DNA of 64,000 bases from Thermoplasmatales archaeon (GCA_027343225.1 DAHWMK010000022.1:6849-70848); one strand, 5' to 3'; shown: positions 37,685 through 46,748, counted from the stretch's first letter. A program made the numbers and translations. Notes: a model not told the origin generated them from the sequence alone.

Positions 37685-38470
37685 TCATGATTGTTCCCTA
37701 AGCAGTTCTGCTAGCCTTCTCGATTTCTCTGCCACGTCCCCCTCTATAAACACCTTCTTTCTTTTCGAAGGTGTTATTTCATTAAGTCCTCGCACAAATG
37801 TGAAAGAACCCTTAATGCCTGTTACCTCTTCCCTCAGACCGAGATTGTTTGAAGACCACACCGTTAGATGGAACTGGGAGATCGCCCATTTCATCCTTTT
37901 GAAATCCGGAAATCGCGGCTGTACCGCTCCCATCTCAATGCTTATCATTGCAGGGAGGGAGGTCTCAACTGTCTCGTGTCCTCCCTTTATTCTTCTCTGT
38001 ACCTTTAGTTTGTCTGCATCTACCTCAACAGAGGTGGCAAACATGACTTGCGGTATGTCTAGAAACTCGGCAATTTGTCCTGGTAACTGCCCAAGAGCAG
38101 CATCTGATGACTCCTCACCTGCCAGAATCAGGTCATAGTCTCCTATTTGAGCTATGGCAGTTGACAGGACGAGTGCTGTTGGATAGGTATCCGCCCCCCC
38201 AAAATTTCTGTCCGAGAGGAGAACAGCGTCGTCTGCTCCCATAGCTATTCCAAGTTTAAGGAAGTTCTCGAACAAAGGAGGACCCATGGAGATAAGAATC
38301 ACTCTCCCTCCGTGTTTCTCCCTAATCCTCAAGGCAATCTCGATTGCTGTTTTGTCAGCTTCGTTTATCTGGTTCTCAGCCTTACTCCTGTCCAGTCTCT
38401 TCGTCACGGGATCAAAGATGATGTTTTCTGACTTCGGGACTACCTTCAAACAGACGATAATGTTTCTCAT
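37685..38470 (-). CDS. etfB: Electron transfer flavoprotein, beta (small) subunit
   Basis: MRNIIVCLKVVPK...INEADKTAIEIALRIRE...GADDAVLLSD is the canonical EtfB N-terminal pattern. It overlaps etfA by 4 nt. Confidence 0.9.
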   Translation of the reverse strand: MRNIIVCLKVVPKSENIIFDPVTKRLDRSKAENQINEADKTAIEIALRIREKHGGRVILISMGPPLFENFLKLGIAMGADDAVLLSDRNFGGADTYPTALVLSTAIAQIGDYDLILAGEESSDAALGQLPGQIAEFLDIPQVMFATSVEVDADKLKVQRRIKGGHETVETSLPAMISIEMGAVQPRFPDFKRMKWAISQFHLTVWSSNNLGLREEVTGIKGSFTFVRGLNEITPSKRKKVFIEGDVAEKSRRLAELLREQS

Positions 38471-39441
38471 CTTTTTTCCTCCAGTCTCTTGATGACGGCG
38501 GGAATTATCTCAGAAACATCCCCCACCACACAATAGTCAGAGTGGTTGAATATTTCTGATTCCCTGTCTATGTCAACTGAGATAACAGTCCTACAGTCCC
38601 TTATGCCTGACGTGAAGTGTTCAGAACCACTCACGCCCAAAATTAGAGTAAGCTTGGATTTCAAAGAGTATCCAGTGGTTCCAACCTGCAGTTCCCTAGG
38701 GGCTATTCCTTTGTCGGCTAGTGGTCTCGTAACACCCACATCCGAGTTAGTGAGTTCAGCAAGCTTCCGTACTAGTGAAATGTTTCCTCCGATTCCGTTC
38801 CCTCCGACGATAGTTCTCTCAGACTTCGTGAGGTCCTTTGATTTCGTGACCTTTCTTTCGATTACTCTTACCCTGTCTTTCACGGATGAAAGATCAGGTA
38901 CCACTTCAACGATTTCCCCCTTCCTGTTCTGATCATAGACCTTTGTAAATGTACCTGGCCTAACTGTGGACATCTGTGGACGAGCCTTCTCGCAGATGAT
39001 TTCAGCCATTATTTTACCCCCATATGCCGGAACGCCAAAAACGAGAAGCCCCTCCTCGTCCATCTCTAGATTGATGGCGTTTGCGGTTAGACCAGTTCGG
39101 AGTCTTGCTGCAAGCCTACCAGCAAGGTCTCTGCCGTAGTAGGTCGCACCTATCAGAAGAGCAGTTGGAAATTCAGATGAGGCTAGATCAAAAAGGGCCT
39201 TTGAGTACAGGTCATTCGAATACTCATTGAGCCTTTCGTGTTTTAGCAGAATCACTTTGTCAGCTCCATATCTGATAATATCCTGCAACTCTCTCTCTTC
39301 AGAGGTACCGAGCACAATAGCTACGATTTTATATGGAGAGGACTTTGTTATCACATTCAATTTACCTATAATTTCCAGAGACACATCCTCTATCTCGCCT
39401 TCGCTTCTTTCGACCACTACCCATATTTCTTTCCTTGTCAT
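38467..39441 (-). CDS. etfA: Electron transfer flavoprotein, alpha (large) subunit
   Basis: C-terminal FAD-binding region ...VGGNGIGG...GVTRPLADKGIAPRELQVGTTGYSLKSKLTLILGVSGSEHFTSGI. 324 aa with no N-terminal ferredoxin domain. It overlaps the upstream gene by 4 nt. Confidence 0.9.
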   Translation of the reverse strand: MTRKEIWVVVERSEGEIEDVSLEIIGKLNVITKSSPYKIVAIVLGTSEERELQDIIRYGADKVILLKHERLNEYSNDLYSKALFDLASSEFPTALLIGATYYGRDLAGRLAARLRTGLTANAINLEMDEEGLLVFGVPAYGGKIMAEIICEKARPQMSTVRPGTFTKVYDQNRKGEIVEVVPDLSSVKDRVRVIERKVTKSKDLTKSERTIVGGNGIGGNISLVRKLAELTNSDVGVTRPLADKGIAPRELQVGTTGYSLKSKLTLILGVSGSEHFTSGIRDCRTVISVDIDRESEIFNHSDYCVVGDVSEIIPAVIKRLEEKR

Positions 39442-45310: not shown

Positions 45311-46443
45311 CTGAATGCCTCCTTGATTGCATTAAGGATGACGCTGTAGTCTGGAATCGCTCCCGGTGGAAAATGGATCTCCTTGGTTTCTGATTTGCTG
45401 TACTCTCTTATTGGATGTGAATACTGACCGTAGTTGATCTCCGGAACGATAAACTGCTTGGCCTCTGTGCTGATTTGTTCGATCCTTTTCTGCGGGAAGG
45501 GCCACAGAGTTATCGGTCTGAAAAGACCCACTTTGAGTCCTCTCTTCCTGGCGATTCTGACGGCCTGCTTTGCTGCTCTGGAAGTTATTCCATAAGCGAC
45601 CACGACTACTTCTGCATCCTGCAGGAAAAATTCCTCATATCTCACTATTTTTTCTTCGTTCTTTTTCACTTTCCCCATTAGATGCTCTAGCATCTCTCTC
45701 TCAACGGAAGACTCATTGGAAGGATACCCTCTCTCGTCGTGAGTCAGGCTATCAACATTTCCTCTGAATCCTTGACCTGCGACAAACATTGGTATGTAAT
45801 CATCAGTATAACTGAAAACTCTGCTCTCATCATCGCTTCTCCTCGTTAACCTCTGAACGACTTCATATTCCTCGGGTGCCTTCACATCCAGTACTTCAGA
45901 GAGATGTCCCACGACTTGATCAGAGGCTATTATGACTGGTTGCCTGTATCTTTCAGCTGAATTGAATGCCTCTATTGCAAGGTCGAAGGATTCCTGTACG
46001 CTGTTTGGCGCATACGTTATCGGTGCCAGATCCCCATGGGATCCATATCGCGTCTGCATTACGTCTCCCTGACCAACCCTGGTAGGAATACCAGTAGAAG
46101 GGCCCGCTCTCATCTCATCCAGGATGACGGTTGGTGTTTCAGTGATGATTCCTAAACCGATGTTCTCCTGCATAAGTGAAAACCCTGGTCCGGAAGTGGC
46201 GGTCATGCTCTTTGCTCCTGCATTGGAAGCTCCGATTATAGCGGCCATGCTTCCTATCTCGTCTTCCATCTCGATAAAGTGTCCGCCTAGTTTTGGTAGA
46301 CGTTCACTCATCCTTTCAAGAACCTCACTGGAAGGAGTTATCGGATAACCAGCAAAGAATCTGCAGCCAGCCATTAGAGCTCCCTCGGTAACTGCCAAGT
46401 TTCCGTCCGCAAAGTACCTTCCCGGCTCTAACAATGCTGTCAA
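45307..46443 (-). CDS. 2-oxoacid:ferredoxin oxidoreductase, alpha subunit
   Basis: GNLAVTEGALMAGCRFFAGYPITPSSEV...TATSGPGFSLMQE is the canonical OFOR alpha N-terminus. 378 aa. Confidence 0.92.
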   Translation of the reverse strand: MTALLEPGRYFADGNLAVTEGALMAGCRFFAGYPITPSSEVLERMSERLPKLGGHFIEMEDEIGSMAAIIGASNAGAKSMTATSGPGFSLMQENIGLGIITETPTVILDEMRAGPSTGIPTRVGQGDVMQTRYGSHGDLAPITYAPNSVQESFDLAIEAFNSAERYRQPVIIASDQVVGHLSEVLDVKAPEEYEVVQRLTRRSDDESRVFSYTDDYIPMFVAGQGFRGNVDSLTHDERGYPSNESSVEREMLEHLMGKVKKNEEKIVRYEEFFLQDAEVVVVAYGITSRAAKQAVRIARKRGLKVGLFRPITLWPFPQKRIEQISTEAKQFIVPEINYGQYSHPIREYSKSETKEIHFPPGAIPDYSVILNAIKEAFR

Positions 46444-46748
46444 GTCGGTACCTCCCTCACATAAATTGCAAAGTCAGGACAGATCGTTTGACACATTCCG
46501 CAGGCAACGCATGAATCTTCCTTCCCGGCTCTAACCCTTACTGGGTGATAACCGTGACTGTTCACAGTAGGAGACCTTTCAAGAACATCGTTTGGACAAT
46601 AGTTGGTGCAGTAGTTACACTCCTTGCACCTCTCCGGAATTATGTGCACCTCCCCCTTAGGTTTGGTGAGTCTGTCGGAATTAACCGGCTCTCTCCAAAT
46701 CTCCTTTTGGTCATCAGAAATCTTAGGCTCTTTCAACATAACATGCAC
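46440..46748 (-). CDS. 2-oxoacid:ferredoxin oxidoreductase, delta subunit (2x[4Fe-4S] ferredoxin-like)
   Basis: CKECNYCTNYCP and CVACGMCQTICP motifs. 102 aa. 4-nt overlap with the alpha gene. Confidence 0.88.
   Translation of the reverse strand: MHVMLKEPKISDDQKEIWREPVNSDRLTKPKGEVHIIPERCKECNYCTNYCPNDVLERSPTVNSHGYHPVRVRAGKEDSCVACGMCQTICPDFAIYVREVPT

Follow-up and report, generated by a model that had tools for sequence, protein, structure and literature searches.

HdrA-type electron bifurcation has so far been found in partnership with hydrogenase, formate dehydrogenase, F420, methylene-tetrahydrofolate reductase and, recently, benzoyl-CoA reductase; we know of no 2-oxoacid:ferredoxin oxidoreductase (OFOR) that serves as a built-in partner of HdrA. 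Such a partnership is suggested by a 64,000-nt stretch of DNA from a Thermoplasmatales archaeon (GCA_027343225.1, DAHWMK010000022.1:6849-70848), referred to below, at its full length, as the window. At positions 37685-46748 it carries eight minus-strand genes, coding in order for the delta, alpha, beta and gamma subunits of an OFOR, an HdrA-HdrA-MvhD fusion, an HdrD-like protein and the EtfA and EtfB subunits of an electron transfer flavoprotein (ETF). We give about an even chance to the reading that the eight products would assemble into a single soluble redox complex, self-contained and centred on an HdrA-type bifurcating flavin, with the OFOR as its low-potential arm and Etf, probably ending at NAD(H), as its high-potential arm.

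The closest characterised system is the class II benzoyl-CoA reductase of Geobacter metallireducens, Bam[(BC)2DEFGHI]2, with its ETF, which was compared by its published description (bioRxiv 10.64898/2026.04.10.717634). According to the cryo-electron microscopy of BamE and BamF, a fused HdrA dimer holds a bifurcating FAD, with Lys280 and the Cys59-Cys62 pair, in its first thioredoxin reductase-like domain (TrxR1) and a structural FAD, with a Gln, in its second (TrxR2), together with clusters E1-E7 and an MvhD-like adaptor; the distal cluster of BamD has a Cys-to-Ser change, and ETF docks on BamD as high-potential acceptor (bioRxiv 10.64898/2026.04.10.717634). As for the HdrD-like protein, its closest kind is EtfD of M. 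smegmatis (9OJN; PMC13083937) and EMO of S. aciditrophicus (SaEMO; bioRxiv 10.64898/2026.08.18.745454), both of which keep the proximal non-cubane cluster and have a His blocking the coenzyme M (CoM) site, the distal cluster being variable or degenerate; heterodisulfide cleavage uses both non-cubane clusters (PMC13083937; bioRxiv 10.64898/2026.08.18.745454). Concerning bifurcating Etfs, mutagenesis of Ldh-EtfAB has defined the residues needed for bifurcation, which is abolished by an Arg-to-Ala change at the N5 of the b-FAD (PMC9232219). Finally, archaeal HdrA-HdrA-MvhD fusions are listed in an earlier catalogue, which gives neither their gene context nor a function (PMC11237513). Full-text literature searches returned no description of the cassette or of an OFOR-HdrA-HdrD-Etf composition, as the preliminary description of the locus had supposed, but that statement has to be narrowed, since the Hdr/Etf half has a close characterised counterpart in BamDEF with ETF. 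Neither the OFOR partner nor the cassette as a whole nor its Etf subfamily appears to have been described.

All eight minus-strand open reading frames (ORFs) were recovered in the order and at the coordinates first claimed, and Pfam and NCBIfam searches agreed with the earlier domain call for each of them:

46440-46748, minus strand: OFOR delta, 102 aa from a GTG start (Pfam Fer4 family, NCBIfam OorD as best match; orthologue alignment)
45307-46443, minus strand: OFOR alpha, 378 aa, with POR_N and PFOR_II domains (NCBIfam NF006412)
44468-45310, minus strand: OFOR beta, 280 aa, binding thiamine pyrophosphate (TPP) (Pfam TPP_enzyme_C; 8ys5_C, 8.6e-59)
43938-44471, minus strand: OFOR gamma, 177 aa (Pfam POR, 6e-29), ending 11 nt inside hdrA
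40562-43948, minus strand: HdrA-HdrA-MvhD fusion, 1128 aa (NCBIfam HdrA2 and Pfam FlpD)
39438-40526, minus strand: HdrD-like protein, 362 aa, of EtfD/EMO/BamD type (Pfam CCG twice; match to EtfD 9OJN)
38467-39441, minus strand: EtfA, 324 aa, with ETF and ETF_alpha domains (Pfam)
37685-38470, minus strand: EtfB, 261 aa (Pfam)

Four junctions (alpha/beta, beta/gamma, hdrD/etfA and etfA/etfB) are 4-nt start/stop overlaps reading ATGA; the fifth one described as such, delta/alpha, is also 4 nt long but reads TTGA, because alpha begins with a TTG codon. The 11-nt gamma/hdrA overlap and the 35-nt hdrA/hdrD gap were both reproduced; the gap contains a GGTGGGAGAAGG motif, and inspection of its sequence did not reveal an A/T-rich box. 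A GGAGG-like motif lies upstream of all eight starts, and the translational coupling and tight junctions speak for the single operon initially proposed. Since no hydrophobic 19-mer of the eight products exceeds a Kyte-Doolittle (KD) value of 1.6, all of them are predicted from hydropathy to be soluble, in line with the first claim.

The linkage was surveyed by scanning a genome collection with aligned HdrA-fusion homologues as query and then searching by tblastn with each of the eight proteins of the window; host taxon names are those attached to the records of the metagenome-assembled genomes (MAGs). Because the eight genes recur in identical order in 14 other complete loci, and in four further loci cut by contig ends, the arrangement can be regarded as far beyond chance. 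At an HdrA-fusion identity of at least 52%, 14 of 14 loci (10 complete, 4 cut by contig ends) carry the colinear cassette, in hosts labelled Thermoplasmatota, Anaerolineae, Dehalococcoidia, Chloroflexi and Elusimicrobia, so that the co-occurrence of OFOR and Etf elsewhere, for which a neighbourhood check had been recommended, is borne out, against the refuting condition that the linkage be missing from related genomes. Gene-called contigs of Halalkaliarchaeum sp. AArc-GB, a Nitrososphaerales MAG and a Rokubacteria MAG hold the same eight genes with overlaps of 1-8 nt, the gamma/hdrA overlap included. An independent search with EtfA led back to the same cassette for 3 of 3 sampled homologues (42-50% identity); these came from a host labelled Heimdallarchaeia, from a locus neighboured by regulator genes of haloarchaeon type and from a host labelled Euryarchaeota. 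As a whole, the cassette hosts comprise Thermoplasmatota, a haloarchaeon, Nitrososphaerales, a Heimdallarchaeia-labelled MAG, Chloroflexota, Elusimicrobiota and Rokubacteria, and the etfA-before-etfB order, pointed out at the start, is real and kept across cassettes. An all-against-all comparison of the flanking ORFs of 15 loci found no ninth conserved gene; as only the eight core genes recur, the cassette looks like a self-contained module, and the same comparison led to the rejection of a conserved extra gene in the form of an input module, an acyl-CoA dehydrogenase, an EMO or a hydrogenase.

A second, Etf-less form of the cassette was found in 11 loci (including L016, L033-L036, L039, L040, L045, L046 and L051; MAG labels Planctomycetes, Gemmatimonadota and others). 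It associates OFOR delta-alpha-beta-gamma with a tandem HdrA of about 1000 aa (41-44% identical to the HdrAA of the window), a separate MvhD and an HdrD-like protein, and has a further HdrA-MvhD protein in place of Etf. Since the OFOR accompanies the tandem HdrA, MvhD and HdrD-like protein in this variant as well, these components can be taken, from their shared gene context, as the conserved core; the Etf-less form is probably a true disulfide-linked relative.

The OFOR itself is, by its domains and gene order, of the four-subunit Kor/Oor type (oorDABC). Its alpha subunit reaches 486 bits against NCBIfam NF006412 (cut-off 411), whereas beta, gamma and delta remain below their NCBIfam equivalog cut-offs; the closest solved structures to alpha are P. 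furiosus 1yd7 (1.6e-102) and the 2-oxoglutarate synthase 8ys5. The OorD/KorD-like delta, which has an in-frame ATG 9 nt after its GTG, contains two CxxCxxCxxxCP [4Fe-4S] motifs, and an RxP(I/L/V)(N/D) segment near its N-terminus is kept in both cassette variants; considered as a docking motif, it was set aside because the alignment covered cassette sequences only. A further OFOR adjoins the cassette in three loci, L085 (2888-6045), L086 (18100-20707) and L090 (1988-2182, 11942-12175 and 12178-14083), the last one also having small ferredoxin genes on both sides of the cassette. These neighbours point to the cassette OFOR being a specialised paralogue and to free ferredoxin as a possible partner.

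The gene context bears on an alternative in which the cassette would code for separate, co-regulated enzymes, namely an ordinary ferredoxin-reducing OFOR and a co-transcribed BamDEF-like/Etf oxidoreductase (for example a ferredoxin:NAD+ or ferredoxin:ETF oxidoreductase), with free ferredoxin running between them. The complete delta and normal Kor/Oor look of the OFOR would suit this alternative, as would the small ferredoxin genes of L090 and the observation that KGOR reduced free ferredoxin in vitro for the Bam complex (bioRxiv 10.64898/2026.04.10.717634). We nevertheless regard it as improbable, given that the gamma/hdrA overlap is conserved across domains of life, that the OFOR-tandem-HdrA linkage holds in both cassette variants despite their low HdrAA identity, and that the further OFORs beside three cassettes argue for a specialised one within it. 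Moreover, an HdrA-type flavin needs three partners and, without the OFOR, only Etf and ferredoxin would be available, the third being unencoded.

The centre of the proposed complex is the 1128-aa fusion, which scores 1169 bits against NCBIfam HdrA2 (cut-off 1100) and matches M. wolfeii HdrA (5odc_A) in three pieces (residues 3-377, 440-582 and 842-979), the last of which spans the end of the second TrxR domain and the C-terminal ferredoxin domain, followed by MvhD (5odc_D). Across 12 diverse homologues, 28 Cys are invariant, corresponding to the ligands of seven [4Fe-4S] clusters, and so are five MvhD Cys and both GxGxxG FAD Rossmann motifs; the Cys set agrees with the clusters E1-E7 and F1 described for BamE and BamF. 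The parts of the fusion are as follows:

42659-43948, minus strand: TrxR-like domain 1 (residues 1-430), into which a 2x[4Fe-4S] ferredoxin domain is inserted (5odc_A match)
43781-43792, minus strand: CxxC pair C53/C56 of TrxR1, invariant in 22 orthologues
43130-43132, minus strand: Lys273 of TrxR1, aligned with Lys409 of M. wolfeii HdrA and invariant in 22 orthologues
42209-42634, minus strand: HdrA N-terminal-type [4Fe-4S] domain (residues 439-580), aligned to 5odc_A residues 3-145
41234-42208, minus strand: TrxR-like domain 2 (residues 581-905), with the FAD motif but neither CxxC nor Lys
41033-41233, minus strand: C-terminal 2x[4Fe-4S] ferredoxin domain (residues 906-972; Pfam Fer4_21 at 911-965), with eight invariant Cys
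40619-40993, minus strand: fused MvhD [2Fe-2S] adaptor (residues 986-1110; Pfam FlpD, 8e-43; 5odc_D, 3.6e-32)

Lys273 and C53/C56 together are the signature of a bifurcating FAD in TrxR1, and the HdrA-type bifurcation or confurcation role put forward initially is plausible. In TrxR2, the Lys-equivalent position 746 is a Gln in the window and Q/G/N/H/S across the 22 orthologues, and there is no Cys pair; this domain retains the FAD fingerprint and a CSRxCC cluster motif of its own, and is probably a non-bifurcating, structural flavin domain. The HdrA N-terminal-type domain sits mid-chain between the two TrxR domains, with C448, C450, C483 and C508 invariant, while the C-terminal ferredoxin domain is presumed to be the electron entry or exit relay to MvhD, whose invariant Cys are C994, C997, C1023, C1048 and C1053. 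Taken together, the protein is best described, from its alignments, as an intramolecular HdrA dimer with a BamE-like asymmetric layout, BamE being compared by its published description.

Like BamE/BamF, the cassette combines an MvhD-type adaptor with a fused HdrA dimer in which one flavin domain is of the bifurcating type and the other degenerate, and which has the ligands of seven [4Fe-4S] clusters, although its MvhD is fused to HdrA and has Cys instead of selenocysteine. The low-potential module differs too, a TPP-dependent OFOR standing where Bam has the tungsten enzyme BamBC, and the cassette is without BamGHI, the NADH and ferredoxin confurcating input; an identity as class II benzoyl-CoA reductase was rejected, as neither BamB tungsten AOR-type nor BamGHI domains were found in the eight genes or their flanks. 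With MvhAGD-HdrABC the cassette shares the HdrA-type flavin with Lys and CxxC (K273 corresponding to Lys409 of 5odc_A) and the MvhD adaptor, but it has no hydrogenase, no catalytic HdrB and no CoM/coenzyme B (CoB) context; its HdrA is a fused asymmetric pseudo-dimer and the predicted high-potential partner is Etf rather than a disulfide. As for the HdrA-MvhD fusion of M. acetivorans HdrA2B2C2, the likeness lies in the NCBIfam HdrA2 best match, above its cut-off, whereas HdrA2 is a single HdrA unit with the catalytic HdrB2C2 acting on CoM-S-S-CoB. A side observation concerns the extra HdrA-MvhD gene of the Etf-less locus L039 (14550-16961), where an in-frame TGA (15135-15137) takes the place of the second Cys of DCSIC (FPTMDCSI*ILGPKM); it probably codes for selenocysteine, underlining the functional role of the CxxC pair.

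The HdrD-like protein has a pair of cubane motifs and a pair of CCG/NCB motifs. Public annotations differ on the start of hdrD, some placing it 23 codons downstream (339 aa; 40458-40526 in the window; 13492 in L001/L002 vs. 6266 in L004), but the 362-aa form with its TTG start at 40526 is the right one, because the first conserved CxxCxxCxxxCP motif is missing from the shorter call. Among solved structures, the closest to this protein is the mycobacterial EtfD 9OJN (4.7e-48), vs. 1e-13 for HdrC and 1e-3 for HdrB. The Cys/His pattern was analysed in 21 extracted orthologues, the window protein and EtfD. All ligands of the proximal non-cubane site are present, C255, C293, C294, C332 and C335 aligning with the five cluster ligands of EtfD, and the distal site reads C133...C167C168...S205xxC208:

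39903-39914, minus strand: degenerate distal motif S205-P-H207-C208, in which the first Cys of CxxC is replaced by Ser

Ser205 is present in 12 of 12 extracted Etf-linked orthologues (13 sequences with that of the window), the distal CxxC being SPH(C/S) throughout, and additional distal ligands are lost in L011, L013, L014, L031 and L086, several orthologues having lost the majority of the ligands of this site. By contrast, nine proteins of the Etf-less variant have both CCG motifs complete and a Glu at the His207 position; the two complete CX(n)CCX(n)CXXC motifs (10 Cys) typical of catalytic HdrB/HdrD are therefore found in Etf-less but not in Etf-linked proteins. What the Etf-linked proteins do have is the pattern of ETF-interacting NCB proteins, i.e. 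two cubane motifs, a 5-Cys proximal site, a His in xPHC and a degenerate distal site, and by alignment His207 occupies the position of the substrate-site-blocking His of EMO/EtfD. Because the distal site is degenerate, His207 is present and EtfD is the best solved relative, the protein looks like an electron wire on which ETF is predicted to dock, this being its best-supported role; indirect support for the docking comes from hdrD and etfA overlapping by 4 nt and from their co-occurring exclusively with each other in the contexts examined. Disulfide chemistry at the CCG domains, which the preliminary description had favoured, is unlikely on these grounds.

Like EtfD and EMO, the HdrD-like protein has the five aligned proximal Cys, the His in xPHC, a variable distal cluster and two cubane plus two CCG/NCB motifs, and it is predicted to exchange electrons with the ETF flavin in the same way; BamD offers a similar parallel, with an intact proximal and a distal Cys-to-Ser non-cubane cluster and ETF as partner. 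Unlike EtfD and EMO, it is predicted to be a soluble protein, which would pass electrons to or from HdrA and not quinone, without a transmembrane haem-b domain or quinone site, and its distal motifs are SPHC and CCG instead of the CPHC and CTG of EtfD. No membrane haem-b domain was found in its 362 aa (maximum 19-residue KD of 0.81), and this missing domain rules out an identity as EMO, whose soluble part it would resemble in its working.

The Etf subunits were analysed with the bifurcating-Etf motif criteria of PMC9232219, the positions concerned being the following:

39031-39033, minus strand: Val137 of EtfA, at the N5-contacting Arg position
38195-38209, minus strand: NAD loop RNFGG of EtfB, in which RxFxG is kept
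38078-38104, minus strand: b-FAD motif DAALGQLPG of EtfB, a degenerate DGDTAQVGP

Both subunits score higher against bifurcating Etfs (E 1e-35 to 1e-57) than against group-1 ETFs (1e-19 to 1e-25). Val137 aligns exactly with Arg205 of LctC and Arg146 of A. fermentans; among the best 120 EtfA homologues, the motif could be located in 104, with Val in 98, Thr in 6 and Arg in none. In the same set, the alpha-FAD motif GISGAIQH has become G(V/I/A)SGxxHF (GVSGSEHF in the window), HF being found in 85 of the 89 sequences where it was locatable. In the orthologues DGDTAQVGP reads DG(A/G/S)TGQVP, its second Asp being lost in all members, and the SPT motif of EtfB reads SFT, whereas the RxFxG NAD loop (DRNFGG) is conserved in all orthologues and the GSxTxV segment is also kept. 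Every context examined for this Etf subfamily was the present cassette. Classification against bifurcating and non-bifurcating groups, as had been recommended, thus gives a divided answer: overall similarity and the NAD loop are of the bifurcating type, but the N5 Arg and DGDTAQVGP are lost, and the canonical bifurcating EtfAB first envisaged is not sustained. The pair is best viewed, from its motifs, as a dedicated cassette subfamily derived from bifurcating Etfs, which is probably not itself a bifurcator and plausibly still reacts with NAD(H).

Among known complexes, Bcd-EtfAB (5ol2), CarCDE (6fah), Ldh-EtfAB (7qh2) and EtfABCX (7koe) show the highest Etf similarity and share RxFxG and GSxTxV; the cassette Etf departs from them by the N5 Arg being Val or Thr, the degenerate DGDTAQVGP, the alpha-FAD QH turned to HF, the etfA-then-etfB order and a partner of the NCB/HdrD-like type instead of a flavin dehydrogenase. 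It also differs from the ETF of Bam (BamOP), reported to be transiently bound, in being dedicated, operon-encoded and derived from bifurcating Etfs. In addition, a Thermoplasmatota MAG (L005) carries, directly after its cassette, a fused EtfB-EtfA (16713-18446), whose 577 aa share about 31% identity with the cassette Etf.

The HdrD-like and Etf data together leave very little probability to an Hdr-like complex whose CCG domains would act on a thiol/disulfide and whose EtfAB would itself bifurcate, i.e. the version first proposed for this locus. That version draws on the presence of two CCG domains and of HdrA/MvhD domains, on the NCBIfam best match of the CCG protein (thiol:fumarate reductase TfrB, 1.9e-40, well below the curated cut-off), on the best scores of both Etf subunits being against bifurcating Etfs, and on the two complete CCG motifs of the Etf-less variant. 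It has to face the SPH(C/S) of every Etf-linked orthologue when cleavage uses both non-cubane clusters, the loss of more distal ligands in several of them (e.g. L011, L013 and L086), the blocking-type position of His207, a Val in EtfA where the Ala mutant abolishes bifurcation, and the second Asp of DGDTAQVGP being lost throughout.

Returning to the single complex built on the HdrA flavin, its cofactor sites are established by sequence, whereas the connections among them are those that we infer. On the high-potential side, homology with HdrABC and BamDE suggests a path from the TrxR1 flavin through the adjacent cluster and the HdrD-like subunit to the alpha-FAD of Etf, with NAD(H) as the probable end point. 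On the low-potential side, electrons would pass from the FAD through the inserted ferredoxin domain to the two [4Fe-4S] clusters of OFOR delta, the [4Fe-4S] cluster of OFOR beta and TPP, so that 2-oxoacid cleavage or synthesis near -500 mV would be served directly, without free ferredoxin. The OFOR is placed on this arm, via delta, because it is the only thermodynamically sensible place for a reaction at about -500 mV; the placement parallels Bam(BC)2, the catalytic low-potential module that sits on the inserted ferredoxin domain of the Bam complex. A precedent for low-potential electrons being channelled into a CO2-handling enzyme, and not into free ferredoxin, is the Hdr-formylmethanofuran dehydrogenase supercomplex. 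A third, mid-potential two-electron path would lead through the C-terminal ferredoxin domain and MvhD to a diffusible carrier; as this third partner is encoded in none of the loci compared, a pool carrier is expected, probably ferredoxin.

Textbook potentials are about -500 mV for the OFOR reaction, -320 mV for NADH, -420 mV for ferredoxin (Fd) and about 0 mV for ETF. With these values, the reaction

2-oxoacid + CoA + NADH + 2 Fd(ox) <-> acyl-CoA + CO2 + NAD+ + 2 Fd(red)

has a standard-state energy of about +4 kJ/mol and would be reversible. It is the overall reaction that we favour, with a confidence that stays somewhat short of even, because the cassette is self-contained, its Etf is fixed and has an NAD loop, and amino-acid fermentation gives NADH and 2-oxoacid in a 1:1 ratio. 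In a peptide fermenter it could run forwards, glutamate-dehydrogenase NADH being turned into reduced ferredoxin 1:1 with the 2-oxoacid; backwards, it could give a boost to reductive carboxylation.

Several points weigh against this assembly and its proposed reaction. The physical association of OFOR and Hdr is deduced from synteny and translational coupling, and the docking site of OFOR delta from thermodynamics and the analogy with Bam(BC)2; the likeness to BamD and BamE is judged by published description, not by alignment. The third partner is not encoded in the cassette loci compared, and we know of no precedent for ferredoxin docking at the C-terminal ferredoxin/MvhD side. It is uncertain that Etf acts on NAD(H), since both the Arg and the second Asp of DGDTAQVGP are lost and the window protein is also without the Thr; the beta-site of Etf may hold AMP or nothing, and Etf would then be a plain shuttle like that of class II benzoyl-CoA reductase. 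Finally, a high-potential arm ending at -320 mV implies a narrow span, comparable to that of Nfn and unusual for HdrA systems.

If the Etf were such a shuttle, the HdrA wiring would stay the same and Etf would be a dissociable one-flavin carrier at about 0 mV, moving between the HdrD-like protein and acyl-CoA dehydrogenases or quinone (through EMO or ETF-QO). In one direction, reduced ferredoxin or NAD(P)H would be bifurcated, one electron going to reductive carboxylation by the OFOR and the other downhill to ETF; such reductive carboxylation with ETF as second acceptor would yield -30 kJ/mol with NADH and -69 kJ/mol with ferredoxin as donor (textbook potentials). In the other, confurcation of electrons from the 2-oxoacid and from ETF reduced by acyl-CoA dehydrogenases would form 2 NAD(P)H; at about +25 to +30 kJ/mol (textbook potentials), this direction is endergonic at standard state. 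There is precedent in ETF docking on BamD as high-potential acceptor and donating to the homologous EtfD and SaEMO domains, whose distal-cluster degeneration is the same as that of the HdrD-like protein, and the loss of Arg and DGDT suits a non-bifurcating carrier. Many of the hosts are also labelled as lineages that include respirers, Nitrososphaerales, Rokubacteria and haloarchaea among them, able to pass ETF electrons to a quinone sink. Yet no acyl-CoA dehydrogenase, EMO, ETF-QO or donor module is conserved beside the cassette in the 15 loci; the dedicated, translationally coupled Etf is more typical of a fixed subunit; and the strongly conserved RxFxG loop and b-FAD front residues would be needless for a pure shuttle. 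We consider a carrier of this kind rather unlikely.

The cassette could represent a new class of bifurcating enzyme, in which an OFOR is hard-wired to the low-potential arm of HdrA without free ferredoxin and a remodelled Etf forms the other arm; this is put forward only tentatively. If true, the enzyme could either upgrade NADH to reduced ferredoxin through 2-oxoacid decarboxylation, giving amino-acid fermenters a means of NADH disposal, or make pyruvate or 2-oxoglutarate from NAD(P)H- or ordinary ferredoxin-level reductant in hosts without a dedicated source of very-low-potential ferredoxin; the cassette would also be a mobile unit that has spread horizontally to seven or more lineages of archaea and bacteria. 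Should the wiring hold, a bifurcating flavin would be coupled directly to the common reaction of central carbon metabolism with the most negative potential (2-oxoacid <-> acyl-CoA + CO2), which bears on the disposal of NADH-level electrons in fermenting archaea and on the driving force of reductive carboxylation without energy-converting hydrogenases or Rnf. The comparison also sets apart an Etf subfamily marked by the changes Arg to Val and QH to HF, and defines a soluble, EMO/BamD-like ETF-docking module, and the contrast between Etf-linked (degenerate distal cluster) and Etf-less (intact double site) cassettes predicts CCG wires in the former and disulfide reductases in the latter. A named strain, Halalkaliarchaeum sp. 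AArc-GB (GCA_031432225.1), carries the cassette, which may be experimentally accessible if this strain is in culture.

The immediate surroundings of the operon in the window consist of:

46779-46784, minus strand: TATA-like box TTTATA, 36 nt 5' of the delta GTG, within a 182-nt spacer
46931-47016, minus strand: tRNA-Leu(CAA), between gcvPB and OFOR delta, on the same strand as the operon
47039-49855, minus strand: gcvPB and gcvPA (glycine-cleavage P-protein), directly upstream of the cassette
37184-37552, plus strand: convergent ORF, 3' of etfB

The TATA-like box of the first account is present, but its 180-nt gap is in fact the 182 nt that separate delta from tRNA-Leu(CAA), the closest upstream protein gene being gcvPB at 290 nt; the tRNA fills most of this intergenic space and bounds the promoter region of the operon. 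The convergent gene after etfB, also part of that account, was found. Rfam and tRNA scans of the window detected two tRNAs only, with no riboswitch or leader. The glycine-cleavage neighbours are lineage-specific, and the adjacency of gcvP is not kept beside the cassette in the 15 loci; a lipoyl-GcvH disulfide as Hdr substrate, prompted by the upstream gcvPA/PB and a paper on Culexarchaeia, was rejected on account of these unconserved flanks and of the non-catalytic type of the CCG protein. UbiE-like methyltransferases beside the cassette in L005, L085 and L088 were likewise set aside as coincidence, being non-orthologous (about 20% identity, E > 0.08).

The 64,000 nt of this Thermoplasmatota MAG contain no hydrogenase genes and, as had been noted, no methanogenesis genes. 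Archaeal S7, EF-2 and EF-1alpha genes, an amino-acid permease, M20 and S9 peptidases and the glycine-cleavage P-protein genes are present, a gene content consistent with a peptide-degrading host. A DDE transposase gene (DUF772/DDE_Tnp_1; 33752-34705, minus strand) lies about 3 kb past etfB and may bear on the mobility of the cassette. Elsewhere in the window, two paralogous Pyridox_ox_2 genes, of the split-barrel flavin/deazaflavin-binding kind, are found at 11451-12095 and 27256-27942, both on the minus strand. Lastly, contigs from bins named Bacteroides salyersiae and Dialister hominis (L076 and L084) have a tandem HdrA plus MvhD layout close to that of the Methanomethylophilaceae/Thermoplasmatales loci L058 and L070, and most likely reflect binning contamination of the public records.

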